Assembly (NCBI GenBank): GCA_963771175.1
Contig: CAVYSY010000032.1
Coordinates: 480,001-544,000, forward strand
Length of the DNA stretch: 64,000 bases
From: an uncultured delta proteobacterium
GTDB taxonomy: Bacteria > Myxococcota > Myxococcia > Myxococcales > Myxococcaceae
Direction of reading: 5' to 3'
The notes under the pieces were generated by a model. That model worked only from the letters and a program-made list of their open reading frames with translations. It made no database searches and was not told the DNA's origin. The number at the start of each line of letters is the position of its first letter. Position 1 is the first letter of the stretch. This document shows positions 19,374 through 57,900 of this stretch, one piece after another. The translations under genes were made by a program, and so were the position numbers.

Positions 19374-19806
19374 TTTCGCCGACTCCTGGCAGGCGCTCAG
19401 TATCACCTCTATCGGAGCGACAGAGGTGCGGCCCTGGCCACGCTAGATGCACAGCTTGCGCGGCAACCCCAGAGCGTTGGGGCCCTCGCCTTCAAGGCGG
19501 AAATGATGGAAGACGCCGGCGAGTTGCTCCAGGCCTAGAAGCTTTACAATGCAGCGCTCGAGGCTCATTTCACGAAACGGCCCAACGCCCAGCATCCTCC
19601 CTTGGGGCTGATGGAGCGACGGGCCGCGCTCAGCAAGAAACTGTTCCCGGAAACGTTCAAGTAATCCTGAGCACGGTGTCGCTTCGTGTCGGCGGGCCGC
19701 GGGAGCCCTCGTGCCGGATGAACCGCCCGAGCGCGGAAAAGGGTTGCCTCGGCGGCCCGTCGCGTCAATCCTCCGCGTTCCCGCGGACGAGGGAGGGCAA
19801 GACCGC

Positions 19807-20238
19807 ATGCGTGGGACGTTCGGACTCCTGATTCTGGTGACGCTGGCTGGCTGCACCTCGGTGGACGTGGCCCGGGTGCCGTCGCTCCGCGACACGCGTG
19901 ACGTCTTCGTCACAACGGGGGACGTGAAGGGTCCCTACCAGAGCCTCGGTGTGGTGCAGGCCACGCGGCGCGGCGTGCTTCTCTTCGGCTTCGCGGACCC
20001 CGCGGGCACGGACCTGGAGGACGGGCTGCACGAGACGCTCATCCCCGAGGTGCGGCGCCTGGGCGGCGACGGCATCATGAACCTGCGCTTCCAGCAGACA
20101 CAGTACACCGTCCCCACCCGCCTCCTCTTCACCCTGCTCTTCTTCATCCCGCTGCCGAGCGAGGTCACCCTCAGCGGCGAGGTGGTGAAGCTCGGCCCGG
20201 GTGCCGCGCCGCCGTCGGCCGGTACCCCGTCGCGTTGA
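19807..20238 (+). CDS. YbjQ/DUF74-like lipoprotein 1
   Basis: Lipobox LAGC; GDVKGPYQSLGVV...EVRRLGGDGIMNLRF...LSGEVVK. Confidence 0.75.
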   Translation: MRGTFGLLILVTLAGCTSVDVARVPSLRDTRDVFVTTGDVKGPYQSLGVVQATRRGVLLFGFADPAGTDLEDGLHETLIPEVRRLGGDGIMNLRFQQTQYTVPTRLLFTLLFFIPLPSEVTLSGEVVKLGPGAAPPSAGTPSR

Positions 20239-20263
20239 ACCCGTTCCGCTCCTGGAGAACCCG

Positions 20264-20710
20264 GTGAGACTCCCGATCCTGCTCCCGTTGCTGCTGTGCG
20301 TCGGCTGCAGTGCCGTGTCGCGCGGCTCGAAGCTGTCGGACCGTCCGCCCGATGGCGAGCGCGGCCTGTACCTGAGCACCGGCGGCGCGCCGAGGCCCTA
20401 CCGCACCCTCGGGTTTACCCAGGTGCTGGGCTACGGCGTGACCGTGGCGGGCGTCTCGGACCTGGGCAACGCCGCCCTCGACAACACCATCAAGAAGACC
20501 CTGGTGGACACGGCCCTGAGGATGGGCGGCGATGGCGTCATCAACATCGAGTTCGAGGACGAGAACCCGCCCACCGACGTGGAGCGCGCGGCGGACCTCT
20601 CCGAGTCCATCACCAACGTGGCGAGCGGTCGCGGTGGCGGCGTGAAGACCCGCAACCGCAATGTGATCGTCACCGGCGAAGTCATCCAGTTCATCTCCTC
20701 CCAACCGTGA
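20264..20710 (+). CDS. YbjQ/DUF74-like lipoprotein 2
   Basis: Lipobox-like CVGC; PRPYRTLG...ALRMGGDGVINIEF...VTGEVIQF. Confidence 0.75.
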   Translation: MRLPILLPLLLCVGCSAVSRGSKLSDRPPDGERGLYLSTGGAPRPYRTLGFTQVLGYGVTVAGVSDLGNAALDNTIKKTLVDTALRMGGDGVINIEFEDENPPTDVERAADLSESITNVASGRGGGVKTRNRNVIVTGEVIQFISSQP

Positions 20711-20721
20711 GAGCTCCTCCC

Positions 20722-21159
20722 ATGCGTCTCCTCCTCGCGCTCGCGCTCGTGGCGCTCACCGGCTGCACCGTCATCAACACCACCTCCGTCCCGTCCGACC
20801 GCAGCGGCAGGGACGTCTTCGTGTCGGCGGGCGACATCCCCGAGCCCTATGAGACGCTCGGCGTGGTCCAGGCCACGCGCTCGGGCGTGCTGCTCTTCGG
20901 CTTCGTGGACGTGATTGGCACGGACCTCGACGCCGGCTTCAAGGACGTGCTCATCCCCCAGGTGCGGGAGATGGGCGGCGATGGCGCCATCAACGTCCGC
21001 TTCCGCCAGACGCAGTACCTGCCGGTGACGAAGGTGTTCGGCGCCATCTTCTTCTTCATCCCGCTGCCCAGCAGCGTGACGGTGACGGCCGAGGTGGTGA
21101 AGCTCCAACGCCGCGCGGACCTGCCCGCCGAGAGCTCGGCGCCCGTCGTCTCCCGCTGA
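20722..21159 (+). CDS. YbjQ/DUF74-like lipoprotein 3 (paralog of lipoprotein 1)
   Basis: Lipobox LTGC; GDIPEPYETLGVVQATRSGVLLFGF...VREMGGDGAINVRF. Confidence 0.75.
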   Translation: MRLLLALALVALTGCTVINTTSVPSDRSGRDVFVSAGDIPEPYETLGVVQATRSGVLLFGFVDVIGTDLDAGFKDVLIPQVREMGGDGAINVRFRQTQYLPVTKVFGAIFFFIPLPSSVTVTAEVVKLQRRADLPAESSAPVVSR

Positions 21160-21223
21160 AGGGAGCGCCCCTGGCGGCGCACGCCAGGCGTGCAGCGGAG
21201 CAGGCGCCGCGCTCCTCGGTCGC

Positions 21224-22726
21224 ATGAGCGGGAGCGCGGCCGGCCTCGGCCGCGCCTACGTTTGCTTCGTGCACCTCGAAGAAGTCCACATCCAGCCGGT
21301 ATCGATGGACCGCTTCGATCCGCTCATTGGCCCGGAGCGGGCGGCGGAGCTGCATGCCGCGGTGGAGCTGGCCCGGCGGGTGCTCCACGGGCGCGTCGTC
21401 TTCAACGTGAACTCGACCGCCGTGGGCGGGGGGGTGGCGGAGATGCTGCAACCCCTCCTCTCCTACACACGCGGCGAGGGCATCGATACCCGTTGGCTCG
21501 TCATCCAGGGCAACGAGGACTTCTTCCGCATCACCAAGCGCCTGCACAACCGCTTCCACGGGGCGCCCGGGGACGGCGGGCCGCTCGGTGAGGCCGAGCG
21601 GGCCACCTACGAAACCGTCCTGAAGGAGAACGCGCTGGAGCTCTCGGCGCTCATCGCGCCCCGGGACATCGTGCTGCTGCACGATCCGCAGACCGCCGGG
21701 TTGATTCCCCTGTTGCGGCGCTTGGGGGTACTCGTGGTGTGGCGGAGCCACGTCGGGACCGAGCAGTGGAACGACTCCGTGCGCTCCGCCTGGAGCTTCC
21801 TCCGGCCGTACGTGGAACAGGCGTCGGCCGTCATCCTCACCCGCGCCGAGTACGCGCCGGACTGGCTGCGACACCCCGTCATCATCCCGCCCTCCATCGA
21901 TCCGTTCTCGGTGAAGAACGAACCGATGGCCGAGGAGACGGTCCGCGCCATCCTCTGCCGCGTGGGCATCCTGAGCGGGAATCCGGAGACGCCCGCCATC
22001 TACATCCACCGGGACGGAACACCCGGTCGCATCGACCACTACGCGGACCTGCTGCGCGCCGGACCACCGCCTTTGCCCGAAGTCCCACTGGTCGTGCAGG
22101 TGTCCCGGTGGGACCGGCTCAAGGACATGATTGGCGTCATGCACGGCTTCGCGCGCCGCGCTGGCACGCTCCTGGGCGCACACCTCGCGCTCGTGGGCCC
22201 GAACGTGAGCAGCGTCTCCGATGACCCCGAGGGCGCCTTGGTGCTCGGCGAGTGCACCGCGGCCTGGCGTGCGCTGCCACATGCCGTCCGGCGGCGCATC
22301 CAGCTCGTCTGTCTGCCGATGGTCGACCGGGACGAGAACGCGGCGATCGTCAACGCGCTCCAGCGGCACGCGACCGTCGTCGTGCAGAAGAGCCTCGCCG
22401 AGGGGTTCGGACTCACCATCGCGGAGGCCATGTGGAAGGCCCGCCCCGTCATCGGGAGCGCGGTCGGGGGCATCGTGGAGCAGATCGTGGATGGCGAGAG
22501 CGGGCTGCTGCTCGACCCGCCCACGGATCTGGACGCCTTCGGCGCGGCACTGGCGCGGTTGGTCTCGGACCGCTCCTTCGCCGAGCGGCTGGGGCAGAAC
22601 GCCCGTCAGCGGGTAATCGAGCACTTCATCGTGATCCGGCACCTCATCCAGTACGCGCGACTCTTCGACAGTCTGGAGCACGCGCAGCAGGCGCCGGAGA
22701 CCGCCGCGGGTAGCCCACCCTCGTGA
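21224..22726 (+). CDS. GT4 glycosyltransferase, TreT-like trehalose synthase
   Basis: NVNSTAVGGGVAEML, FFRITKRLHN, HDPQTAG, QVSRWDRLKD, QKSLAEGFGLTIAEAMWK. Confidence 0.88.
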   Translation: MSGSAAGLGRAYVCFVHLEEVHIQPVSMDRFDPLIGPERAAELHAAVELARRVLHGRVVFNVNSTAVGGGVAEMLQPLLSYTRGEGIDTRWLVIQGNEDFFRITKRLHNRFHGAPGDGGPLGEAERATYETVLKENALELSALIAPRDIVLLHDPQTAGLIPLLRRLGVLVVWRSHVGTEQWNDSVRSAWSFLRPYVEQASAVILTRAEYAPDWLRHPVIIPPSIDPFSVKNEPMAEETVRAILCRVGILSGNPETPAIYIHRDGTPGRIDHYADLLRAGPPPLPEVPLVVQVSRWDRLKDMIGVMHGFARRAGTLLGAHLALVGPNVSSVSDDPEGALVLGECTAAWRALPHAVRRRIQLVCLPMVDRDENAAIVNALQRHATVVVQKSLAEGFGLTIAEAMWKARPVIGSAVGGIVEQIVDGESGLLLDPPTDLDAFGAALARLVSDRSFAERLGQNARQRVIEHFIVIRHLIQYARLFDSLEHAQQAPETAAGSPPS

Positions 22727-24466: not shown

Positions 24467-26753
24467 CTACACGTAGCCGAAGCGGCGGCGCAGGAACCAC
24501 TCGGCGCCCAGCAGGCCCACCAGCGCCATCAGGTAGTACCACCGGTCCCACAGCGGCTTGTCCTTCGCCCGGCCCACCTCCACCACCGGCGGGTCCAGCA
24601 GCGGCACGTCATCCGGCAGCCCGTCCATCGGCAGCCGGTACGACTTGCCCCCGGTGTACTTCGCGATCTGCTCCATGAGCGCCGGCCGCACCGAGGCGTC
24701 CGACAGCTCCGGGCCCACCGCTCGCACCGCCACCGCGTCCTCGCCCTTGCCCAGGTCCGTCTCGCCCTTCTTCGCCGTGGCCACCAGCTTGTACGGGCCC
24801 GGTGCCGGCGGAGCGAACTCCAGCCGCACCACGCCATCCGGCCCCGTCTGCCCCACCTGCACCGCCACCGGCTTCTGCGTGTCCACCGACACCAGTTCCA
24901 CCCGCACCTGCGCGTCCTGCGCCGGCTGGTAGTCCGACGTCCTCGACGACACCACCACGCCCACCGGCTTGCCCGGCTCCACCGACGGCGGATCCGCCGT
25001 CACGTTCAGCGTCGTCAGGTCAGGGTCTCTCACGAGCCAGCGCAGCGCGTTGCCCCAGAACCGGTCATAGGTGCGGCTGGGCGAGCCCTGCTTGTGCGAC
25101 GTGAAGGCCCAGTACCAGCTCGCGTCCGTCGCCATCACCAGCGCCCGGCCCCGGCCGTAGTCCCACACCGCCACCAGCGGCGCGTTCTTCCCGTCCACCG
25201 TCATGTGCGGGTGGTCCATCAGCACCGTCGCCCCCGGCTTCGCCCGCGTCTGGTTCGCGCCCGGAATCGCCGGCAGCTCCGCCCACGCAACCTCCGTGCT
25301 CGCTCCTCCCGAGGCCATCGCCGTCACCGGGTGACGCATCCCCTCGGGCGTCAGGCGCGCCTTGAAGGGCTCGGCGTTGGCCGGGCCCGCGCCCTCCACT
25401 GGCAGCGCCTCGTACAGCGTGGGCATGCTCGCGCGGCCCTCGCCCAGCACCGCGTCCCCGCCAATCAGCACCAACGCTCCGCCGTTGTGGACGTAGCGCT
25501 CCAGGTTGCGCTCGTACTGGGCAATCGACAGCGACTGATCCGCGTAGCCGAAGTTCTGGAAGATGACGACGTCGAAGGTGTCCAGCTTCGTGTCGAAGAT
25601 CTCCTCCATCGGGAACGGAATGAGCGACAGCTCGCGCTCCTGGCTCACCACGCCCGGGTCATCCGACATGGTCCGCAGGATGTAGAAGGACACCAGGTCC
25701 ACGTTGGCGTCCTGGCGCAGCAGGCCGCGCAGGAAGCGCTCGTCCCACGAGGGCCGGCCCACCACCAGCAGCACGCGCACGCGGTCGCGAATCACCTTCA
25801 GCACGAAGGAGCGGGTGTTGTTGTCCCCCACCGCCTCGTCCGGGAAGACGGGCATGCTCACCGTGTAGACGAAGCGCCCCGTCTGGTCCGGCGTGAAGGT
25901 GAAGCCCACCGGCTTCACGTCGTCCGAGGACTCGAAGCGCACCGACTTGCTCGCCACCACCTTGCCTTCCTGCTTCAGCACCACCGGCACGTCCTGGCCC
26001 GAGAAGCCCCGGCCGTGCACCTCCACCTCCACGGTGATGGAGTTGCGCACGAAGGCGAAGTCGTCCACCTTCACCCGCTCGACGGCCAGGTCCTTCAGCG
26101 CCTCCTTGCCCACGAGGAAGGTGGACACCGGCACGTCCAGGTCCGCCAGCGCCGCGCGCGCCCGGCCCACCGCCCCGCCCGCCAGCTCCACGTTGTCCGC
26201 GCCGTCACTCACCAGCAGGATGCCGCCCAGCTTCTTCGTGCCCTGCGCCCCCGCTCCCGCCGAGCGCAGCGCCGACAGCAGGTCCGACGTGCCCGCCCGC
26301 GCCGGCTCCTTCGCCAGCGCCTCGGCCGTGGTGGGCGACAGCTCCGGGTCGAAGCCGTACACCTCCACGGTGTAGCGGTCCTGCAGCGCCGCCAGCCCCG
26401 GCGCGGCCTTCTCCAGGAAGGAGGCCACCTGCGCCGAGCGCGTCATGCCCCCCGGCTCCACCGGGAAGTTCATCGAGGCCGAGCGGTCCACCAGCACCGC
26501 CACCCGGTTCTTCATCCGCGCCACCTGGAGGTTGCGGATGCCGGGCTCGAGCAGGAAGAAGAGCGCCGCCACGCCCGCGCCCGCGCGCAGCGCCCACAGC
26601 GCCCAGCGCCGCCAGCGCGAGGGCTCGCGCCGCACGCCCCACGCGGCCAGTCCCACGCCGAGCGCCAGCGCCCACGCCCAGCAGCACCAGCGCCCAGACG
26701 GGCAGCGGCGAGAGGCTGACGAGCTTCCAGGCATTGAAGGGAGTGGTGTCCAT
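24467..26753 (-). CDS. Membrane-anchored vWA + glutamine-amidotransferase-like (DUF1355-like) protein; indel near 26670
   Basis: N-terminal transmembrane segments, VAVLVDRSASM (MIDAS), LLVSDGADN, GRPSWDERFLR, C-terminal EWFLRRRFG. Confidence 0.8.
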
Positions 26754-26774
26754 GAAGGGGGCGAGGGCCTCGGG

Positions 26775-27534
26775 TCAGCGACGCTTGTTGAGGATGAGGG
26801 GCAGGTGGACGGCGTCGTCCTTGTAGTCCAGGCAGAGGGCGTACATGCACAGGTTGATGCCCAGCCGGATGGCCAGCTCGCGCTGGGGCTCGCCGCCCGG
26901 GGAGACGTCGAACTCGTAGTCGCCCGCCTCGCTCGCGGCTCCACGCGCCCGCCACGTCGTTCTGCGAGTACATCACCGCCGCGCGCTTGCCGAGGTTGGC
27001 CGCCAGCAACTGTGGCTTGTTGAGCAACCGGCCCGGCGCCGAGTCCAGCAGGAAGAAGCTCTTGAAGACGACGTGGGTGGAGGGCACCGGGGCGAGCGGG
27101 CTCTGCGGCAGCACGCGCGCCATCTCGCGGCGGAAGCTGGCGTCGAAGCCGTCCCCGTCGCTGCCGTCGTTGGCGTCCGCCAGGAGGAAGCCGCCGAAGG
27201 TGAGGTAGCGCCGGAGGTTCTCCACCTCCGCGTCGCTGAAGGGCGGAAAGCCCCCGTCCCCGCCCAGGTAGAGGAAGGGGTACTCGAAGAGGTCCGGGCT
27301 GGAGAGCGCGAAGGGGCGCGCGTCCGGCACCACCTCCACCGAGGTGCGCCGCTGCAGCTCCCACGCAATCCGTCGGAGGCCGGACAGCCGGGCGTCCCAG
27401 CGGCCGCCGTGCCGGGCCACGGCGGGGATGAAGCGGCTCTTCTCTCCGAAGGCGGACGCACGTCCAGCCAGCAGCGGGACGAGCGCCGCGCTGCCGAGCA
27501 AGAGGTGTCGACGGCTGAGGGGGCGCGGGGGCAT
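26775..27534 (-). CDS. DUF4159-family protein with Tat-like signal; indel near 26935
   Basis: SRRHLL twin-arginine motif; LFEYPFLYLGG, ENLRRYLTFGGFLLAD, C-terminal MYALCLDYKDDAVH. Confidence 0.8.
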
Positions 27535-41917: not shown

Positions 41918-42646
41918 TCAGAAGTCCTCGCGAGCCTCGGCCAGGGTGTACTCCTTCCGGGCGCGGACGAGCGGCCCTGTCTTCTCCACCAGCCACGCGG
42001 GCGCGCCCTCCGGCAGGTAGAAGGACTCCTCGAAGGGCGACAGCCCCAGGTGGCGCAGGTACTCCTGGAGCATGTCGAAGGTGAACCGGTCCCTCACCCG
42101 GCGCGACTGGTACTGCTCCGGTTTCTCGAAGGAAAAGGGCTCACCGAACTGGTCGAAGGCCCAGCGGCCTCCGTCGTTGAGTGCGCTCACGGCGCGTATG
42201 CAGTTGAGCCAGGCCGTCTGGTGCGGGCCATACATGGCGAGCGCCACGGCACCATAGCGGCCCTTGTCGTTCCGGATGGTATTGGGCACGGCGACCACAC
42301 GCAGGCACCGGCAGCCCAGCGTCCGAGCCATGTAGCGCATGGGGCCGGCGGCATCGGTCCCCCGCCAGCCGTTCTCGACGTACGCCGTCCAGGGGCCGCG
42401 GGTCGGGATGAAGAGATGCCGCTGCGTTTCGGAATCCGTGAGGGGCAACAGGGCGGAGAGAGCCTGTTCCAGGGAGCCCGTCACCGGGCGAACCTCGACG
42501 GCGACACCATCGGGCGCCAGCAGCCCTGCTTGCCACGCCGCGTAGGCGCGAGCGGCATGCTCCGCATCGGTCTCCAGAAATCCCATCTCCGAAGTGACGG
42601 GCGCCCAGCGGTCGTCCAGGAGCAGTCCCTTCATGTTCTCGGTCAT
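41918..42646 (-). CDS. Candidate immunity protein
   Basis: Intact 242-aa ORF starting 17 bp after the toxin-like gene; no signal peptide; role inferred from position. Confidence 0.65.
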   Translation of the reverse strand: MTENMKGLLLDDRWAPVTSEMGFLETDAEHAARAYAAWQAGLLAPDGVAVEVRPVTGSLEQALSALLPLTDSETQRHLFIPTRGPWTAYVENGWRGTDAAGPMRYMARTLGCRCLRVVAVPNTIRNDKGRYGAVALAMYGPHQTAWLNCIRAVSALNDGGRWAFDQFGEPFSFEKPEQYQSRRVRDRFTFDMLQEYLRHLGLSPFEESFYLPEGAPAWLVEKTGPLVRARKEYTLAEAREDF

Positions 42647-42663: not shown

Positions 42664-43938
42664 TCAGGGCACGATGAGGAGGATGGTTTCCGCATCCGGG
42701 TCGTTGGATGTGGTGCGCGACTGGTGGCCGGGACCACGGCCCGACGTGGGCGCGTCATACTCCACCTGATAGCGGCGGCCTTTATAGTCGAACTGCAGGT
42801 CCGGGCGGTTGACCCCGACGCGCTGGCCGTTGCGATACGTGAGTTGCTGCTGGTTCACCCGGATGTTCGTGGCGCCTATGTCATCCAGGTATTGGATGTC
42901 CGCCTGAAGCTGCGCGTTCTGCGTGGGGCTGGAGCCAATGGGACGGCTCACCTCTCGTGCGCCGGGCACCTTCGGCTTGACCGCGATATCCTGAGGCAGG
43001 CGTGGGCCAGGAATCACTGGCCGTGTCGGGTTGTTGCCAGCGAGCGCCTGGACCAATCCTGGCGATGGCGCGGGTGAGGCCGACGCGGGAGCGGGCGCTA
43101 CTGGCGCGGGAGCGGGTTCGAGAGGGGGTGCGGCGGATCGCGACACCGGCCGTCGCGGCGCCGGAGCATTCCCCCCGAGTCCCTCCTCCCGAGAAAACGG
43201 ACGAAGTGCTGGCGCCGAGCCCACCCGCACCACGCGCGAGAAGACTCCCTGCAGGACCTTGGTCCCCGTCAGGGTCAACAACAGGACCTTCAGCTCGCGC
43301 TGGACCGTCTCCGCCAGTTGCGTCCGAACCTCGAGCATCGCCCGGGCAATGCGAGGCGTGGTGGCCGGAGAGAAGAGGGTGGGCACGATGAGCGCGCCTC
43401 CCGCGCCCCTGTAATAGGCATACCTCGAGGGGCTCGACCCGGGGACATTGGCCGCCGTGTCCACCAGGGCCGTATCCCGGTCCGGGTAGATGGATGCACT
43501 CAGCGGTTCCGCGCTCTCGAGTCCCAGGTCCACATGAGACTCCGGGACAAGCACGGGCTGCGGCAGCCCCTCACAGTAGAGAAGATACCCTCCTGCGGTG
43601 AGGACAAAGCCCACGGCGGTCACACGGACATCGACGAAGTCCCGATGCGCTCGGGGGTCAGCCAGCCCTTGAGAGGCCCGAGGCAACTGGACGCCGCTCT
43701 GGCGCAGTTCCGCTGCCCGCCGTGGCGTGGGGGCCTCGAAATCGACGTCGACGGCCTGCTGCCCGAAACCTGCCGTATCCCGGTAGTGCTGAGCCGCGAC
43801 AGGGCTGTTCTGCGCGTACCACGCAGGCCCCACCAGGTCGGGCTTCGCTGCACATCCCGCGAGAAACAACAGGAGCGCAAGCCCACTCAACCCACGGAGC
43901 CACCACCCCCTGGAATGGCAATACGTCACGAGGCGCAT
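42664..43938 (-). CDS. Lipoprotein polymorphic toxin with C-terminal restriction-endonuclease-like domain (SitA-like)
   Basis: Lipobox LAGC; Pro/Ala linker; C-terminal NRPDLQFDYKGRRYQVEYD (PD...ExD variant). Confidence 0.7.
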   Translation of the reverse strand: MRLVTYCHSRGWWLRGLSGLALLLFLAGCAAKPDLVGPAWYAQNSPVAAQHYRDTAGFGQQAVDVDFEAPTPRRAAELRQSGVQLPRASQGLADPRAHRDFVDVRVTAVGFVLTAGGYLLYCEGLPQPVLVPESHVDLGLESAEPLSASIYPDRDTALVDTAANVPGSSPSRYAYYRGAGGALIVPTLFSPATTPRIARAMLEVRTQLAETVQRELKVLLLTLTGTKVLQGVFSRVVRVGSAPALRPFSREEGLGGNAPAPRRPVSRSAAPPLEPAPAPVAPAPASASPAPSPGLVQALAGNNPTRPVIPGPRLPQDIAVKPKVPGAREVSRPIGSSPTQNAQLQADIQYLDDIGATNIRVNQQQLTYRNGQRVGVNRPDLQFDYKGRRYQVEYDAPTSGRGPGHQSRTTSNDPDAETILLIVP

Positions 43939-44187
43939 GAATCCCTTCCCGTTCGAGGCGAGTGCTCAGGGTCCACGGGGAGCCCTACGAAGCAACGATG
44001 CAGAACCCACGTGGAACCCTGAAGGACGCGAGAGGTAGATGGCAGCGGGCTCGCCCGGCACCGATGACGCAGCGCACCACCCACATGACACGGGACCAGA
44101 GAAGCGCGCCCTGGATTCATCAAGCCATCGTCGAATTCGTCAAAGATGACGCTTGCGCTGGGCCGTCTTGCTGGTTACCTAGGGTCC

Positions 44188-47100
44188 ATGCCCACGCCCC
44201 CCAGACTCTTCGGCGAAGCCCTCCGCGCAGCTGCGGCTCCCTGGCGCGAGGAGCTCGGCAAATCCGACCGGGACCGGCTCGATGCCTTGCTCGGCCTCGC
44301 CGTCAGGGAGCACATCCCTCTGTCCGACTGTCTCGCGGCGCTCTTCCCGGGCACGGAGACACGGAAGGCCCAGACCGCCCTGACCTCCTTCCGCAAGCGG
44401 CTCAACGATGCCGCGAAGGGAGAGGGCCGCGCCGACCTCGGTCTTCGCTTCCAGGTGGACACCAAGAAGCAGAACCCCCCCACCGAACGCCTCTGCTGGT
44501 TCACCGGACCCGATCCCGCCGTGATGAAGGCGGAGCAGGTCTCCGACCAGCTCACAGCCGATGTCCAAGGCATGCCCTTCGTCCCGTCCCGAGGGATCAC
44601 CACCACCGGGAATGCGATGGCCTCGGGAAAGCGGGTCATCCGCTTCTTCGTCTCCTACGCCCACGACAACAGGCAGCTCGCCGAGGCGCTCGTGAAGGAC
44701 CTGGGCACCCATTTCGCCGCATCCGCCCGCTACGCGCTCATCCCCTGGATGGACCGTGACATCCTGGTGGGTGAGCGCTGGAAGGAGAGCATCGAAGAGG
44801 CCATCAAGGACTGCGACTTCGGCCTCATGCTGCTCAGCCCGGCCTTCTTCGCGAGCAGATTCATCAAGGCGCACGAGCTGCCCCGGTTCGTGGGCGCTCC
44901 GGACAATCCCAGACTCAAGCCCGTCCTGCCCGTGGGATTGGTGCCGATCACGTTCGGCAGGCACGATCTCCAGGGGCTTGAAGAGCACCAGATCTTCCGA
45001 TTCCAAAACGAGCGGCTCGAGGGGCGCTACTACGATCAGATGCCGGCTGGCGCCCGGAGGCGCGAGTTCGTCCGCCAGCTCCACCTCGCCATCGAGAAGC
45101 GCCTCGACGCTTTTTTTTTGACTCCCCCTCCCGGCACGCCCCCCTCCCCTCCCAGGCCCGAGGCACGCACTCCTGACCTCCTCGCCGACCATGTCCCGGT
45201 TCCGGAGGAGACCCCCAACCACCAGCGCAACAAGGGCCTCCCGCTCGCCCTGGTGGACCTGGAGCGGCTCGACACCGGAGGACTCGACCTCGCGGAGCAC
45301 GTCCAGGCGCGCGACGCGCTCGACGAGCTCGAGTCCTGGGCCACCAACTCCGCCGCTCCGCCATTCTTCGCGCTGCTCGGGGAATATGGCATTGGCAAGA
45401 CCACCACCCTGAAGCAGCTCACCCGTCACCTGCTGGAGGAACGCAAGTCCAGACCGGAGCTGCCGCTCCCCATCTACGTGGACCTCCGCGCCTACGTCGG
45501 CGAGACCCGGGACAGCGTTCCCACCATCGAGCAGCTCCTCGCCCGTGTGATGGAGCGGAGCTGGAAGCTGCGGGACCGCAACATCACCCCCCAGGACGTT
45601 CTGCGCCTCGTCCGGGAGGAGGGCGCGCTCATCCTCTTCGATGGTCTGGACGAGAAGATCGTCCACCTCCAGCCCGACCGCGCCCGTGACTTCATCCGCA
45701 CGCTCTGGGCCGTCCTCCCTGATGCCGCACGAAGCGAGGACCCCCTGCCGCCCGGGAAGCGCCGGGGCAAGTTCCTCATCTCCTGCCGCTCTCATTACTT
45801 CCGCGACGTGTTGAGTCAGAACTCGATGCTCGTCGGCGAGGATCGCGAGGGCTTCGAGCGCAACCAGTTTCCCGCCCTCTGCCTCCTGCCATTCACCGAG
45901 GAGCAGATCCGGAGCTATCTGACTTCGCTCCTCGGAGACGCGGAGCGTGGGGCGGAGGCGTTCGAAGTCATTGCCTCCATCCACAATCTCCGGGAGCTCG
46001 CGCAACGGCCCTACCTGCTCACCCTCATCAGCGGCCGCCTCGGAGAGCTGGAGACGCTCCAGGCCCAGGGCGAACAGGTGAATGCCGCGCGGCTGTACGA
46101 ACTCGTCGTCCGCTCCTGGCTCAACCGCGACGACGGGAAGCACCAGCTCGACCCCGTGCACAAGAGCCGCATCATGGAGGACCTCGCCGCCGCGCTCTGG
46201 CGTGACGGCAGCAAGCAGTGGGACGTGGAGCGCCTCGAGGCATGGTTCGACGAGTATCTCGCCGGGAACCCCGCGCTCGCCGCGGCCTACGCGAACAAGG
46301 ACCGCGCCGTCCTCAAGGAGGATCTCCGCACCGCCACCTTCGTGCTGCGGCCCACCACGGAGGAGAAGCACTTCCGCTTCGCCCATACCTCCCTGCAGGA
46401 ATACTTCCTCGCCGCCCACCTCAAGCGCGCGCTGGTCGAGGGACAGGTGGCGCGCTGGGACCTGCCGAGGGTCTCCCGGGAGACGCTGGACTTCCTCGGG
46501 CAGCTCCTGGCCCTCGAGCCCCGGCCCGAGGCCCTGCGCTCGCTGGAGGCCATTCTGGGCGGCGAGTGCCTCGCCGCGGCCGTGCTCGCGTTCGCCTACT
46601 GGCTGCGCGCCCTCGAGCAGGGGCACCCGGTGCCCGCCCCGCAAGCGAGTGAAGCTCGCCGGGGCGGACCTGGAAGAATGGCACCTGCGCGGCCGCGGCC
46701 CCGCGCAGCCGCTGAACCTGCGCGGGGCCGACCTTTCCGGCGTGCGAGCTCAATCGCGCCGGGTCGAGCACGTGAACCTCGCCGATGCCGATCTCACCGC
46801 GCTACAGGCGAGGCAGGCGCTGTTCTTGAAGGTGAGCGCGCCGCGAGCGCGAGCACGGAATGCCGATTTCCGCGGGCTGCGGTGGCGGGAGGGCTCGCTG
46901 TTGGGCGCGGAGCTCCGCGGAGCACAGCTCGCGGGTTGTCAGTTCATCCGGGTGGACCTCGCCGGGGCGAGCCTGCCGGAGGGATGGGAGCGCCACGCCA
47001 CCGTCGTGGAGGAACGCCGAAGCGCTCCCCCTCCTCGAATGGGTACGCCGTCCCTGGCGGTGCTCCTCGGTCACGCCAACTACGGTGAGGGCGTGCGCGT

Positions 47101-49014
47101 GGAGTCCAGACGGCCAGCGCCTCCTGTCTGGCTCTTCCGACAAGTCCCTGCGGGTGTGGGACGCCGCGTCCGGCGACTGCCTTCTCACCCTCTCCGGCCA
47201 TGCCTCCCCGGTGACGGCGTGCGCGTGGAGTCCGGACGGCCAGCGCCTCCTGTCTGGCTCTGACGACCACTCCCTGAGGGTGTGGGACGCCACGTCCGGC
47301 GACTGCCTTCTCACCCTCTCCGGCCATGCCTCCTCGGTGAATGCGTGCGCGTGGAGTCCGGACGGCCAGCGCCTCCTGTCGGGCTCTTCCGACCACTCCC
47401 TGCAGGGTGTGGGACGCCACGTCCGGCGACATGCCTTCTCACCCTCTCCGGCCATGCCTCCTCGGTGAGGGCGTGCGCGTGGAGTCCGGACGGCCAGCGC
47501 CTCCTGTCGGGCTCTTCCGACAACTCCCTGCGGGTGTGGGACGCCGCGTCCGGCGACTGCCTTCTCACCCTCTCCGGCCATGCCTCCTCGGTGACGGCGT
47601 GCGCGTGGAGTCCGGACGGCCAGCGCCTCCTGTCGGGCTCTTCCGACAACTCCCTGAGGGTGTGGGACGCCGCGTCCGGCGACTGCCTTCTCACCCTCTC
47701 CGGCCATGCCTCCTCGGTGTTGGCGTGCGCGTGGAGTCCGGACGGCCGGCGCCTCCTGTCGGGCTCTTTCGACCACTCCCTGAAGGTGTGGGACGCCACG
47801 TCCGGCGACTGCCTGCTCACCCTCTCGGGCCATGCCTCCCATGCCTCCCCGGTGACGGCGTGCGCGTGGAGTCCGGACGGCCGGCGCCTCCTGTCGGGCT
47901 CTTTCGACAACTCCCTGAGGGTGTGGGACGCCGCGTCCGGCGACTGCCTTCTCACCCTCTCCGGCCATGCCTCCCATGCCCCCCGGTGACGGCATGCGCG
48001 TGGAGTCCGGACGGCCAGCGCCTCCTGTCTGGCTCTGACGACAGCTCCCTGAGGGTGTGGGACGCCGCGTCCGGCGACTGCCTTCTCACCCTCTCCGGCC
48101 ATGCCTCCTCGGTATTGGCGTGCGCGTGGAGTCCGGACGGCCAGCGCCTCCTGTCTGGCTCTGCCGACAGCTCCCTGAGGGTGTGGGACGCCACGTCCGG
48201 CGACTGCCTTCTCACCCTCTCCGGCCATGCCTCCTGGGTGAATGCGTGCGCGTGGAGTCCGGACGGCCAGCGCCTCCTGTCTGGCTCTGACGACAGCTCC
48301 CTGCAGGTGTGGGACGCCGCGTCCGGCGACTGCCTTCTCACCCTCTCCGGCCATGCCGATTCGGTGTGGGCGTGCGCATGGAGTCCGGACGGCCAGCGCC
48401 TCCTGTCTGGCTCTTCCGACCACTCCCTGCGGGTGTGGGACGCCGCGTCCGGCGACTGCCTTCTCACCCTCTCCGGCCATGCCTCCCCGGTGACGGCATG
48501 CGCGTGGAGTCCGGACAGCCAGCGCCTCCTGTCTGGCTCTGACGACAGCTCCCTGCGGGTGTGGGACGCCGCGTCCGGCGACTGCCTTCTCACCCTCTCC
48601 GGCCATGCCGATTCGGTGTGGGCGTGCGCGTGGAGTCCGGACGGCCGGCGCCTCCTGTCTGGCTCTTCCGACAGCTCCCTGAGGGGGTGGGACGCCACGT
48701 CCGGCGACTGCCTTCTCACCCTCTCCGGCCATGCCTCCTGGGTGAATGCGTGCGCGTGGAGTCCGGACGGCCAGCGCCTCCTGTCTGGCTCTTCCGACCA
48801 CTCCCTGAGGGTGTGGGACGCATCCTCGGGCCAATGCGTCTGGTCCAGCCATCTCTTCCCGGAGGGGCAAATCGCGTCAATCGACGAGGTTCACGGACGC
48901 GTCCTCCATGCATCCCCCGAAGCCTGGCGCTGGCTGGGCTGGCGCTGGAACGACCCCGCCACTGGCCAGCTTCGTATCCTCCCCGCTGAATCCCTTGGCC
49001 CACTCCCCGCTTGA
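44188..49014 (+). CDS. NLR-like STAND protein: possible wHTH, TIR, NACHT, pentapeptide repeats and 14 WD40 repeats; several indels between 46640 and 47980
   Basis: TIR: FFVSYAH, WMDRDILVGERW, LLSPAFFASRFIKAHEL; Walker A GEYGIGKTT; Walker B LILFDGLDE; FRFAHTSLQEYF; pentapeptides LRGADLSG and LADADLT; WD40 repeats. Confidence 0.9.
47085..48830 (+). repeat. 14 tandem ~126-bp WD40-coding repeats, near-identical at DNA level
   Basis: Unit gcgtgcgcgtggagtccggacggccagcgcctcctgtc...tgccttctcaccctctccggccatgcc recurs every ~126 bp; two units carry a 9-bp (HAS) duplication. Confidence 0.95.
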
Positions 49015-49084
49015 TTGGCTGCGCGGTGCCTCGTCCGCCCGGCGGTGACGAATCGAACCACAGGGGTCATCCCGGGTCCGCCGC

Positions 49085-49122
49085 CCCTCACCCCGACCCT
49101 CTCCCGGACGGAGAGGGAGGGG
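49085..49122. repeat. REP-like palindrome (CCCTCACCCCGACCCTCTCC...GGAGAGGGAGGGG)
   Basis: ccctctcc-cggac-ggagaggg stem between convergent genes; resembles a widespread REP-type motif. Confidence 0.6.
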
Positions 49123-49606
49123 TTTGCGGGGTTTTCGCTCTCCTCGCCCGGTGGTAGTGCGCCACGCACAGCTCCTTGGCCAGCACCGGCTTCCCACAGC
49201 CCGGCTCCTTGCAGCGGGGAGCCTCCTCGGGGCGGCGCCTGTCCGGTGGCTCCCGCTGGCCGAACATCGCCTCCGCCACCGCCAGCAGCCGATCCACCTC
49301 GGCCCGTCCCAGCCCGCGCGCGCGCACGAACTCCACCAGCCGGTGCGCCCCCGCCGCCTCGTCCTCCTCCACCCGGAAGAGCTCCGCCAGGGGCACGCCC
49401 AGCGCCGCCGCCACCTGAACGAGCGTCTCGTAGCTGGGGCTGCGCTCGCCCCGCTCCAGCAGCGACGCGAAGCTCACCGAGATGCCACACCGGGCGGCGA
49501 AGTCCTCCTGGGTCAGCCCCCGCCGCTCGCGCAGGGTGCGGATGCGGCGCGCGAGCCCCTGCAGGTGCCCGCTCGCATCCTGGGCTGACGGGGAACTGGA
49601 GCGCAT
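49088..49606 (-). CDS. XRE-family HTH regulator with C-terminal Cys3His zinc-finger-like motif
   Basis: RIRTLRERRGLTQEDFAARCGISVSFASLLERGERSPS; CKEPGC...LCVAHY. Confidence 0.85.
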   Translation of the reverse strand: MRSSSPSAQDASGHLQGLARRIRTLRERRGLTQEDFAARCGISVSFASLLERGERSPSYETLVQVAAALGVPLAELFRVEEDEAAGAHRLVEFVRARGLGRAEVDRLLAVAEAMFGQREPPDRRRPEEAPRCKEPGCGKPVLAKELCVAHYHRARRAKTPQTPPSPSGRGSG

Positions 49607-49697
49607 CGCCAACCCATGTTAGCGCACCCCTTCTGTTAAGGTCTCGCGCCGTCGCAGGTCCCCCGCGCGAGGGACGCCCCAGGAGAGCACCCCGGCC

Positions 49698-54994: not shown

Positions 54995-57900
54995 ATGTCG
55001 GACACGCGTGCGGCGATGAGGGAGTTTCGCTTCCTGGATGAGAAGCGGACGCGGGGAATCCTTTCCCCCGCGGAGGAAGCTCGTTGGAGCGAGCTACAGG
55101 GGCTCCTGGCTACCCAGGGTGTGCCCACGCAGGAGTCCGCCGAGGCCATGGACCCCGCGCAGCAGCCCCAGGGCTACTACGGCGCCGATGGTCAGTGGTA
55201 CGCCTACCCCGCCGACTACTCCCAGTCCGGCTACGCCGCGCAGGGCTACGATCCCCACCAGGGCTACGCGCAGCAGCCCCAGGGCTACTACGGCGCCGAT
55301 GGCCAGTGGTACGCCTACCCCGCCCAGGGCGAGGGCGGCTACGACCCCAACCAGGGCTACGCGCAGCAGCCCCAGGGCTACTACGGTGCCGATGGCCAGT
55401 GGTACGCCTACCCCGCCCGGCGAGGGCGGCTACGACCCCAACCAGGCCTACGATCCCAACCAGGCCTACGCGCAGCAGCCCCAGGGCTACTACGGCGCCG
55501 ATGGCCAGTGGTACGCCTACCCCGCCCAGGGCGGCTACGACCCCAACCAGGCCTACGATCCCAACCAGGCCTACGCGGCCACGCAGGGTCAGCCCTACGC
55601 CGATCCGCAGCAGGCCTACGCGGCCGGCTACGCCGAGCAGCAGCCCTACCCGCAGACGACCACGGACGTGCCGCAGCCGGCACAGGAGCCGACCCCGCTC
55701 AGCCTCGAGAACGAGAACCTCGACATCCCCGCGCTGAACGGACCCGCGCCCTGGGCAGAGCCCACGCCGGAGCCCGCCGCGCCCGTCGACGAGGCCCAGC
55801 CCGAGTTCGAAGCCCAGCCCGAGTTCGAAGCCCAGCCCGAGTTCGAAGCCCAGCCCGAGTTCGAGGCCCAGCCCGAGTTCGAAGCCCAGCCCGAGTTCGA
55901 GGCCCAGTCCGAGCTCGAGGCCGAGCCCCTCGACACGGCCGAGCCCGTCGCCGAGGACGTCTTCGAGGTCTCCGACACCGACGTCACACCCGTCAGCGAG
56001 GCCACGCCGATCCCCGAGCGGCTCGAGGAGCCCGAGTCCGTCGACATGACCGGCTGGGAGGACCCCACTCCCGCGCAGGCCGAGTCCCCGGCGGATCTGC
56101 CGATGTTCGAGGCCTCGCCCGAGCCAGAGCCCTCGTCGCCCATCGAACTGGGCGAGGACGACTTCTCCGCACTCAACTCCGACCTGGGGGCTCCCGCTCC
56201 CGCGTCCGCACCGCCCGTGGTCGAGGAGGAGCCCACGACTCCGGTCCGGACCATCGAGGTGCAACCCACCGACATCGAGCTGCTCGAGGGCGCCGTCGAA
56301 GAGCAGCTCACGCCCGAGCCGGTGCTCGCCGAGGAGCCCACCGCTCCCGTCGCCAACGAGTGGGACTCCGCGCCGCTCGCGGTGGACATGGAGTCGAGCA
56401 CCGCCGCGACCCCACCGCCGCATGCCGACGCCGAGACCTCGGAAGTCGCCCTGCTCGATCAGAGCCGGATGGAGATCACCGCGTCGTACGCGCTCCCCGC
56501 GTATCCGACGGGTGACGTCGCCCTGCTCGAAATGGATGTCACGGCGCCTTCCGCCCGGCCCCTGCCTCCCCTGGAGGAGACCGAAGCGGTCGACGAGACA
56601 CCCACGTTCGACGTCTCCGAGCTCGAGGCCACGCCCGAGCTGGAGCCAGCCCCCACGCTGGACATGCCGTGGCAGACCGACGCCGACACGGCGGCGCTCG
56701 ATGCGAGCCCCGCCCTGGAGTCCGCACCGCACGCCGAGCCCAGCCGCGGAGGAGCCCACCTTCGACGTGGCCGACCTCGGTGCCGAGATGGAGCCGACGC
56801 CCGCCCCGGCTTTCGCGGCCCAGGAACACCCGACCACGCTGGAACTGCACCCGGTGCAGGTCGCGCCCGATCTCCAGGCGGACACGATCGAGCTCGCCGA
56901 CACGTACGAGCCCGGGGCCGTGCAGCCCGAGCACAACACCCTGACCTGGGGCAGCAACGAGGTCGTGCCCTCGGGCGAGCAGCCGTTCGACCTGACCGGG
57001 GACTCGGGCGAGCCCGTGCCGCTCGTCAACGCGAACGAGTTCCTGGGCCACGCCGATGAGGCCGGGACGTCCGTGTCCTCCGAGCCCGTCCCGCTCGAGA
57101 CGGCGGATGCCGACGCGAGCTGGAGCGGAAACGAGGGCTCTGGAGAGAGCCTCCAACTCGAGAGCGCCGCGGAGTACATGAGCACTCCGGAGTTCACCTC
57201 CGCCAGCGCCACCTGGGGACACCAGCCGGGGAGCGAAGAGCTCACGGCGGAGACGAACGCCACGCCCGAGAGCACCACGGCGTACGGCGACAGCCAGAGC
57301 GCGGATGCCGAGCTGCCCTCCATCGAGGCCCAGCCCGAGTGGAGCGCGTCGGCCGAGGAGCCGGCGCCCATCGAGGTCCAGGCGGAGTGGACCTCCACCG
57401 AGCCCGCTACCGTAGAGCCATCCGCCGAGGGCCAGACCGACTGGTCCGCACCGGTCGATGAGCAGCCCGTCCTCGAGGCTCAGCCCGAGTGGAGCGCATC
57501 GACCGAGGAGGCGGCGCCCATCGAGGTCCAGGGCGAGTGGTCCACACCGGCCGAGGAGCAGCCTGTTGCCGAGGCTCAGCCCGAGTGGGCCACTCCCGCC
57601 GAGGGCCAGACCGATTGGTCCGCACCGGTCGAGGAGCAGCCCGTCCTCGAGGCTCAGCCCGAGTGGAGCGCATCGACCGAGGAGGCAGCGCCCATCGAGG
57701 TCCAGGGCGAGTGGTCCACACCGGCCGAGGAGCAGCCCGTTGCCGAGGCCCAGCCCGAGTGGGCCACTCCCGCCGAGGAGCAGCCTGTCCTCGAGGCACA
57801 GGCCGAGTGGTCCACACCGGCCGAGGAGCAGCCCGTCCTCGAGGCTCAGGCCGAGTGGGCCACTCCCGCCGAGGAGCAGCCTGTTGCCGAGGCTCAGACC

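Follow-up and report, generated by a model that had tools for sequence, protein, structure and literature searches.

In a 64,000-nucleotide stretch of contig CAVYSY010000032.1 (hereafter, the window), from an Archangium-like myxobacterium, positions 44188 to 49014 of the forward strand likely constitute one intact gene for a stand-alone, NAD+-cleaving STAND receptor of the bNACHT type, with the frame shifts that interrupt it arising as errors of the assembly. Read across six frame segments, this region specifies one protein of ~1,606 codons followed by the stop codon TGA at 49012-49014. In order from the N terminus, the protein comprises an NNH6 helical cap, a TIR domain, a NACHT module, a pentapeptide beta-helix, 14 WD40 units, and a conserved tail.

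In the list of open reading frames (ORFs), the region appears as a run of overlapping ORFs, and in the three-frame translation it appears as one coding line that hops between frames. By the start coordinate modulo 3, this line runs in frame 1 from 44188 to ~46642, in frame 2 to ~47080, in frame 0 to 47402, in frame 1 for nine codons over 47404-47430, in frame 2 from 47432 to ~47980, and again in frame 1 from 47981 to the TGA. Five net single-base frame shifts and two mutually compensating indels (~46747 and 46759) thereby make seven indels in the gene. An earlier reading of the same DNA, made from the letters alone (the sequence-only reading), had proposed a single gene once the indels were repaired; this was borne out, since one coding line could be followed through all five single-base shifts, and every Pfam domain named in that reading was recovered where it had been placed. 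The start at 44188 (MPTPPRLFGEALR) agrees with the N termini of orthologues. Residue ranges of the Pfam matches given below count from an upstream ATG at 44146, and subtraction of 14 converts them to the numbering from the 44188 start.

The effector domain was matched by the Pfam family TIR_2 (PF13676) over residues 167-267, with an E value of 1.1e-12 (48.9 bits versus 28). Its motif IKAHEL holds the putative catalytic glutamate E230 (numbering from 44188). The claim that the TIR domain keeps a Glu at the expected catalytic position was upheld by the alignment of homologues, in which E230 was invariant in 49 of 49 sequences, as were F154, S156, Y157, W187, D189, and G212. An AlphaFold2 (AF2) model of residues 1-404 reached a predicted local distance difference test score (pLDDT) of 75.8, and a Foldseek search with this model returned MAL, BtpA/TcpB, TLR1, TLR2, RUN1, PdTIR, BtTir, and TIR-SAVED at probabilities of 0.96-1.00, with E values that were modest (best, 3.2e-4) for this two-domain query. 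By phmmer, BtTir (7uxr; E 0.008) and BtpA were matched, and E230 was placed opposite the Glu of 'EYEL' in BtTir and that of 'ARELD' in BtpA, which we take to be the catalytic residues of these two proteins. As a separate observation, the T9 run at 45111-45119 is the only A/T homopolymer of at least 7 nt in the 64-kb, 70%-GC window; it is also present in the closest orthologue (L015, 8921-8929), and six other relatives read GC(C/A)TTCTTC at this site. This run could be a slippage-prone tract.

In front of the TIR domain, NNH6 ('NACHT N-terminal Helical domain 6', PF22737) was matched over residues 25-131 with an E value of 2.8e-22 (79.4 bits versus a cut-off of 27). The sequence-only reading had described an architecture that it could not match to a named system; this did not hold up, as its unassigned N-terminal region is the Pfam NNH6 domain, and the same five-domain layout is common (115 clusters at E<=1e-30). 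Modelled alone (AF2, pLDDT 76), NNH6 folded into three helices, a helix-turn-helix, and a beta-hairpin. Comparison with 48,161 chains by VIA-align gave Z scores of 5.0-6.5 over residues 9-110, below the caution level of 8 for this tool; by title, the 50 matches listed were mostly winged-helix domains, either DNA-binding ones (OmpR-type and others) or those of ORC/Cdc6, kleisins, and NLRs. When NNH6 alone was the Foldseek query, no match was significant (best E, 0.23). Of the earlier suggestion that this region is perhaps a winged helix, the resemblance therefore stood, with matches of the winged-helix kind, and a firm assignment did not, both scores being weak.

A sibling protein (P0194) carries NNH6, a PNP_UDP_1 (phosphorylase-fold) domain in the TIR position, NACHT, and WD40. 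Because this sibling keeps NNH6 and swaps TIR for PNP_UDP_1, another nucleotide-targeting enzyme, NNH6 appears to behave as a constant cap and the TIR domain to occupy an exchangeable effector slot. A role as a transcription factor, considered in view of the winged helix-turn-helix-like cap, was rejected as the main reading: a complete effector-switch-sensor NLR layout follows the cap, and the cap also precedes the PNP_UDP effector.

The central switch was matched by NACHT (PF05729) over residues 409-512, with an E value of 1.3e-7 (32 bits versus 26.7) and 33.4 bits in the genome search. Its Walker A motif, GEYGIGKT (aa 398-405), fits GxxxxGK[ST], with G398, G401, and G403 invariant and K404 nearly invariant among 49 sequences. 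The stretch LILFDGLDE (aa 481-489) holds D485-E489, which fits D[GAS]hDE, and here D, G, L, D, and E were each nearly invariant in 49 sequences; D[GAS]hDE has been described as a signature that follows the aspartate of Walker B (Kibby et al. preprint, 10.1101/2022.07.19.500537; this and the other papers cited here are drawn on for those parts of their text available to us). The NACHT motifs of the sequence-only reading were intact, and its NACHT domain and pentapeptide repeats both scored above the Pfam cut-offs, the latter by PF00805 (E 5.2e-10, 39.1 bits versus a gathering score of 20.2), with PF13599 also matched. Searched against the PDB by phmmer, the NACHT part matched nothing beyond P-loop noise (FtsY, with E values from 0.17 upwards). 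Most simply, the pentapeptide beta-helix would form a rigid spacer between switch and sensor. The linker that joins the TIR domain to NACHT differs in length by 24 nt, in frame, in one related contig. A Pfam scan of the C-terminal tail and of aa 505-817 matched no family. The tail, of ~44 aa (...AWRWLGWRW...PAESLGPLPA), follows a consensus of ...AWRxLxWxxxD...PAExFGPLP across the aligned family. Elsewhere in the same genome, which has one NNH6 match and three NACHT matches, two more NACHT genes scoring above the Pfam cut-off lie at C42:5945-6418 and C30:264039-264488.

The sensor was matched by WD40 (PF00400) in all three C-terminal pieces, with E values of 9e-35, 4e-55, and 4e-88. Tandem Repeats Finder reported one array at 47083-48821 with a period of 126, 13.7 copies, and 91% matches, and fourteen 'AWSPDG' anchors were spaced by 126 nt save for intervals of 128, 135, and 134 nt. 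The anchors and the unit count agree with the 14 WD40 units previously proposed, which may form two 7-bladed propellers. Mean DNA identity among units 1-13 was 0.927, rising to 0.968 outside codons 14, 16, 37, 38, and 40 and falling to 0.625 inside them, and the mean amino acid identity between units was 0.885; of the 17 polymorphic codon columns in the units, 7 were synonymous only. The same five hypervariable positions were seen in 11 of 11 homologues examined. These codons flank a conserved Asp (SGSxDxS) and follow a GH dipeptide (GHxxxVxAC), which by our reading of the WD40 fold would put them on the top face of the propeller, and the five hypervariable residues of each blade are likely ligand-contact positions. 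A hypervariable-codon pattern of this kind in WD40 units is already described: in highly repetitive prokaryotic WD40 proteins, sequence differences are restricted to predicted interaction hotspots (Hu et al. 2017, PMC5587647), and fungal NLRs have a published repeat pattern comparable to this one (PMC4986451; PMC12222747). Two Cystobacter fuscus strains were 89.4% identical over the 944 N-terminal columns and 81.3% identical over the WD40 part, and because each C. fuscus allele has its own repeat framework, the repeats appear to be homogenised within an allele. Units 6 and 7 also contain a 9-nt duplication (47837-47845 and 47972-47979) that places an additional 'HAS' behind GHAS, and in unit 7 this duplicate lacks one base; no such 9-nt 'HAS' insertion occurred among the 42-aa units compared from homologues.

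With the first 860 residues of an intact orthologue as the query, 458 proteins were matched at E<=0.001 among 7,999 scored candidates; the organism names, layouts, and lengths given here were taken from the best 120 of the 458. Among the matches listed, all five Pfam families occurred together in P0001, P0009, P0016, P0023, and P0024, and the full-length members on long contigs (P0006, P0010, P0011, P0015, and P0018) were 1,597-1,604 aa long, compared with a read-through length of 1,606 aa for the window protein. At source, they are annotated in general terms only ('TIR domain-containing protein,' 'eIF2A-related protein,' 'WD40 repeat protein'). The hosts among these matches include the myxobacteria Archangium, Cystobacter fuscus, Hyalangium, and Pyxidicoccus, as well as Prosthecobacter and other Verrucomicrobia, Planctomycetota, Candidatus Limnocylindria, Solibacter, Thiothrix, Contendobacter, and Accumulibacter. 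An exhaustive HMMER search of the first 404 residues of the window protein against 50%-identity cluster representatives gave 115 matches at E<=1e-30, a number that rose to 619 at E<=1e-10 and to 5,389 at E<=0.001. The top matches mostly spanned residues ~10-404 unbroken, and many were 1,550-1,650 aa long. A scan of species-representative genomes found 44 loci in the same phyla, which beyond the myxobacteria are Verrucomicrobia, Planctomycetota, Chloroflexota, Acidobacteriota, and Gammaproteobacteria. Closer to the window, a full-length orthologue was present in 3 of the 17 same-genus genomes searched (78-84% identity), and a partial one was present in one genome of another genus of the same family.

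Clustering of the ORFs on either side of the gene at 45 loci revealed no neighbour family common to the window and any other locus; conserved neighbours were found solely among 9-10 closely related Verrucomicrobial loci. The receptor gene stands alone, without a conserved partner gene.

By analogy with the bacterial NACHT proteins of Kibby et al. (preprint) and with STAND proteins more broadly (Kaur et al. 2020, PMC7159879; PMC13581612), the 14 WD40 units would be the sensor that binds a phage protein or another foreign protein. Ligand binding would release autoinhibition, the NACHT module would exchange or bind nucleoside triphosphate and oligomerise, and oligomerisation would gather the TIR domains, whose composite active site around E230 would then cleave NAD+; depletion of NAD+ would stop or kill the infected cell. 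The ligand, the oligomerisation, the NADase activity, and the defence outcome are all features that we infer from these relatives, and a ligand-activated TIR receptor would agree with the published bacterial NACHT proteins (10.1101/2022.07.19.500537).

An intact receptor might instead use its TIR domain as a signal generator, making cyclic ADP-ribose isomers or similar products, or as a recruiting scaffold, rather than as an executioner that depletes NAD+. Bacterial Thoeris TIRs do make signals (10.64898/2025.12.03.692087), and it is to the Thoeris protein ThsB that one of the weak PADLOC matches of the window protein points; the same source sets aside TIRs in stand-alone proteins as likely NAD+-depleting effectors. 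A signalling TIR, however, is difficult to square with the lack of a conserved partner or effector gene beside the receptor gene across the 45 loci, with an upstream gene that lies on the opposite strand and lacks a TIR, or with the invariance of the Glu at the catalytic position, and a self-contained effector slot is consistent with the sibling in which a PNP_UDP enzyme replaces TIR. Given the lack of a partner gene and the general view of stand-alone TIR proteins as NAD+-depleting, NAD+ depletion is clearly favoured, and we regard a signalling or scaffolding TIR as unlikely.

The reading of one continuous gene depends on the nature of the five frame shifts, which are very probably errors of an indel-rich assembly. 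This assembly consists of 58 contigs, with a genome completeness of 81.66% by marker genes, and all four of the housekeeping genes checked are broken into frame-shifted pieces in it: rpoB into 3, rpoC into 4, ileS into 5, and gyrA into 3 (contigs C25, 92475-100856; C38, 181307-183869, ileS; and C21, 188529-191071, gyrA). The density of breaks is ~11 in ~13.7 kb of rpoB/rpoC/ileS/gyrA versus 5 net (7 indels) in 4.8 kb of the receptor gene. Among the orthologues, which come from three same-genus genomes, L004 has a complete ORF of 1,121 aa with the same C-terminal tail and only three WD40 units, and two others are open to the contig end, L003 over 1,148 aa and L002 over 842 aa; the short WD40 arrays would be expected from collapsed or truncated short-read contigs. 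L003 and L004 cross the sites of shifts 1 and 2 in one frame, L002 extends only to shift 1, and at shift 1 the orthologues read PAP(T/K/A)RVKLAG in a single frame.

Contigs of public sequencing runs, which derive from related, not identical, DNA, were compared over 44188-47130. The best run (X1) contains 0.42 of the sequence words searched for, with no run reaching half, and the contigs of one further run (X11) cover positions outside both testable frame-shift sites. At 46641/46642, one base fewer was found in the X1 contigs (summed depth, 18.1 of 18.1), in X2 (1 of 1), and in X3 (1 of 1), and the same was true at 47081 for X1 (1 of 1) and X2 (1 of 1). For the compensating pair, the related contigs have one base fewer at 46747/46748 and one more at 46758/46759; as a consequence of this pair, the window reads 'AQSR' in the pentapeptide region where the orthologues have a conserved 'LNRA.' These contigs attest to a continuous frame in the relatives and do not bear directly on this strain. 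Within the repeats, the other WD40 units have C or A at 47403 and unit 3 has both, and the extra C in unit 3 looks like a consensus error within a repeat; unit 7 reads CATGCC-CCCCGG versus CATGCCTCCCCGG in unit 6. Within each frame segment, there is no premature stop and no larger lesion.

We judge the shifts to be assembly errors because the housekeeping genes are equally split, the orthologues are open, the related contigs lack the extra base, and the read-through length fits, and we are highly confident that the gene is intact in the organism. If it were a true pseudogene in this strain, the shifts would be present in the DNA and no full-length protein would be made. Consistent with this are the confinement of the five net shifts and the compensated pair to the 3' 2.4 kb, with zero indels in the 5' 2.45 kb, the three shifts without a read check, and the frequent loss of accessory immune genes. 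A pseudogene is nonetheless very unlikely, given that the essential genes have an equal density of shifts, that the correct frame of each segment is free of premature stops and larger lesions, that the base inserted at 47403 sits where units differ, as in a repeat consensus error, and that the gene is intact in relatives. On the track of G+C content at third codon positions (GC3), same-strand frame switches without an obvious gene boundary are also seen at 24500-27400 (-), 19800-22700 (+), and 55100-57100 (+), and indel errors in nearby genes are again the probable cause. Since the assembly is rich in single-base indels, better reads are needed before other 'broken' genes of this genome are called pseudogenes; the practical lesson of the receptor gene is that it is very likely intact despite its broken ORFs.

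Several observations weigh against an intact, NAD+-cleaving defence receptor. Sequence similarity to solved TIR domains is weak (best E, 0.008), and the structural models are of middling confidence (pLDDT ~76). The PADLOC check that the sequence-only reading had called for yielded no named system, PADLOC-DB 2.0.0 giving only weak TIR matches (SAVED_TIR, 1.5e-6; ThsB, 6.1e-6), and NCBIfam gave only a sub-threshold FxsC TIR-like match. In the literature, we found no published experiment on the five-domain family. The gene does not sit in a defence island, its neighbours being a DEAD-box helicase, a sigma-70 factor, a glutamate dehydrogenase, a pyridoxal phosphate (PLP)/ACT enzyme, an XRE regulator, and two genes without a family. 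Three of the five shifts (47403, 47431, and ~47981) lie within repeats, beyond the reach of the read-contig check, and the contigs without the extra base are related DNA only, with, e.g., 12 differences per 271 nt and 123 per 2,379 nt. Finally, NAD+ depletion and signal production are not distinguishable by sequence.

Two of these neighbours adjoin the receptor gene. A 174-aa helix-turn-helix regulator of the XRE family (49088-49612, minus strand) converges on its 3' end across a 73-bp gap, with no conserved link at other loci. Directly upstream, at 42664-43938 on the minus strand, lies a gene for a predicted lipoprotein of 424 aa with a signal peptide ending in LAGC, for which no Pfam or NCBIfam match was found; Atlas places it near myxobacterial Tox-REase-5 toxin clusters with a score of 0.88, which we treat as a lead only. 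A 242-aa gene without a match (41918-42646, minus strand) comes after the lipoprotein gene and may encode its immunity partner. A scan of 43800-49300 for promoters and terminators gave 0 promoter-like sites and 3 terminator-like sites versus 1.8 expected, one of the latter being the T9 tract.

Instead of phage defence, the receptor might act in conspecific non-self recognition or developmental cell death in the manner of HET-E/HET-D. WD40 repeats of high internal conservation with hypervariable, putatively surface-exposed codons are compatible with such a role, as are the two C. fuscus strains, 89% identical N-terminally and 81% in WD40 with a repeat framework of their own in each, and the adjoining lipoprotein, if the Atlas lead to a toxin-like C terminus is followed. 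Yet the same family and repeat pattern occur in non-social Verrucomicrobia, Planctomycetota, Chloroflexota, and Gammaproteobacteria, only 3 of the 17 congeners searched have a full-length orthologue, and variable hotspots are general in highly repetitive prokaryotic WD40 proteins (Hu et al. 2017, PMC5587647), leaving only a slight chance for this role. The sequence-only reading had likewise tied the receptor to the multicellularity of its host, a link that is not specific because the family extends to Verrucomicrobia, Planctomycetota, Chloroflexota, Acidobacteriota, and Gammaproteobacteria. The chance is similarly slim that the family is the bacterial equivalent of HET-E-type receptors, in which blade recombination would keep the scaffold uniform per allele and reshuffle five codons per blade into a private recognition surface for each strain, slippage of the T9 tract in Archangium would serve as an on/off switch, NNH6 would be a lock on TIR or a nucleic acid sensor, and the receptor would guard against toxins or elements of neighbour cells in addition to phage.

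Table 1. Features of the receptor gene in window coordinates; aa numbers count from the 44188 start
Feature	Position	Strand	Basis
Whole gene	44188..49014	+	Translation through five frame shifts
NNH6 domain, aa 11-117	44218..44538	+	Pfam PF22737
TIR domain, aa 149-311; E230 codon 44875-44877	44632..45120	+	Pfam TIR_2, Foldseek, phmmer
T9 homopolymer, codons AFFL, end of TIR domain	45111..45119	+	Homopolymer scan
Proline-rich, low-confidence TIR-NACHT linker	45121..45369	+	pLDDT <50 at aa 313-332
NACHT NTPase module and C-terminal helical region	45370..46642	+	Pfam NACHT, motifs
Walker A GEYGIGKT (K404)	45379-45402	+	Motif
Walker B / NACHT signature DGLDE	45640-45654	+	Motif
Frame shift 1: one surplus base in 'CCCCGCAAGCGAG'	46641..46645	+	Orthologues, related contigs
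Pentapeptide-repeat region, ~115 aa, frame 2 (modulo 3)	46649..46990	+	Pfam PF00805, PF13599
Frame shift 2, start of first WD40 blade	47080..47081	+	Three-frame translation, related contigs
Fourteen WD40 units of 126 nt	47053..48879	+	Anchors, unit alignment
Frame shifts 3 and 4 in unit 3: extra C at 47403, extra A at 47431	47403..47431	+	Alignment of 14 units
Frame shift 5 in unit 7: one base short within 9-nt insertion	47980..47981	+	Unit alignment
Conserved C-terminal tail	48880..49011	+	Alignment consensus

The family unites in one polypeptide parts of plant TNLs (TIR), of animal and fungal NLRs (NACHT), and of Apaf-1 or HET-E (WD40), and a tested member would be a compact model for how ligand binding by a propeller leads to NAD+ cleavage. 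With plant TNLs the window protein shares a TIR effector, a STAND NTPase, and a repeat sensor, and the TIR domain of RUN1 was a structural match at a probability of 0.97-1.00. In the resistosome model of TNLs, the TIR NADase is activated by induced oligomerisation, and the mechanism proposed above follows this model. Unlike a TNL, the window protein has NACHT rather than NB-ARC as its NTPase and WD40 rather than LRR as its sensor, and it has no helper NLR or EDS1-type partner. Membership in Thoeris was rejected, as the ThsB match is weak (E 6.1e-6), there is no adjacent effector gene, and no neighbour is conserved in the 45 loci.

Avs (AVAST) proteins are likewise single-protein STAND sensors, which bind phage proteins and activate an N-terminal effector (PMC13581612), and WD40 beta-propeller sensors are among those of the prokaryotic defence-associated STANDs (PMC13581612). 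Most Avs sensors are TPR-like, however, whereas the window protein belongs to the NACHT clade, and no Avs model was found among the 6 PADLOC matches of its N-terminal 835 aa or the 1 match of its C-terminal 354 aa. The fungal HNWD/NWD proteins (HET-E, HET-D, and HET-R of Podospora anserina) also combine NACHT with WD40 repeats of high internal conservation and few variable positions, and HET-D/E-like proteins have been placed in NACHT clade 18 (10.1101/2022.07.19.500537). Despite the similar sensor, the window protein lacks a HET domain by Pfam and so falls outside the fungal HNWD proteins; it has TIR instead, with NNH6 and the pentapeptide spacer as additional parts. A role in allorecognition is established for the fungal proteins and is at most putative for the window protein. 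With a repeat identity of 0.885, its sensor resembles the highly repetitive prokaryotic WD40 proteins, for which a cut-off of >0.7 was used (PMC5587647); that work is a catalogue of WD40 proteins, and NACHT, TIR, and pentapeptide each have 0 occurrences in its available text.

Bacterial NACHT proteins are the closest comparison. Those with N-terminal enzymatic effectors and C-terminal repeat sensors protect against phage, and the survey of Kibby et al. lists NNH domains, TIR as an NAD+-targeting effector, pentapeptide repeats, and beta-propellers; mutation of Walker A abolishes defence by bNACHT01 (10.1101/2022.07.19.500537). The window protein has the same arrangement: an effector at the N terminus, a central NACHT that bears both GxxxxGK[ST] and D[GAS]hDE, and repeats at the C terminus as the sensor. 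The defenders of that study came from a panel of 27 proteins in E. coli, and the available part of its text holds no statement that a five-domain member was tested. At the level of sequence, the window protein combines the features of the NACHT clade with those of a catalytic-type TIR, and it is probably an ordinary, intact, further member of a catalogued family.

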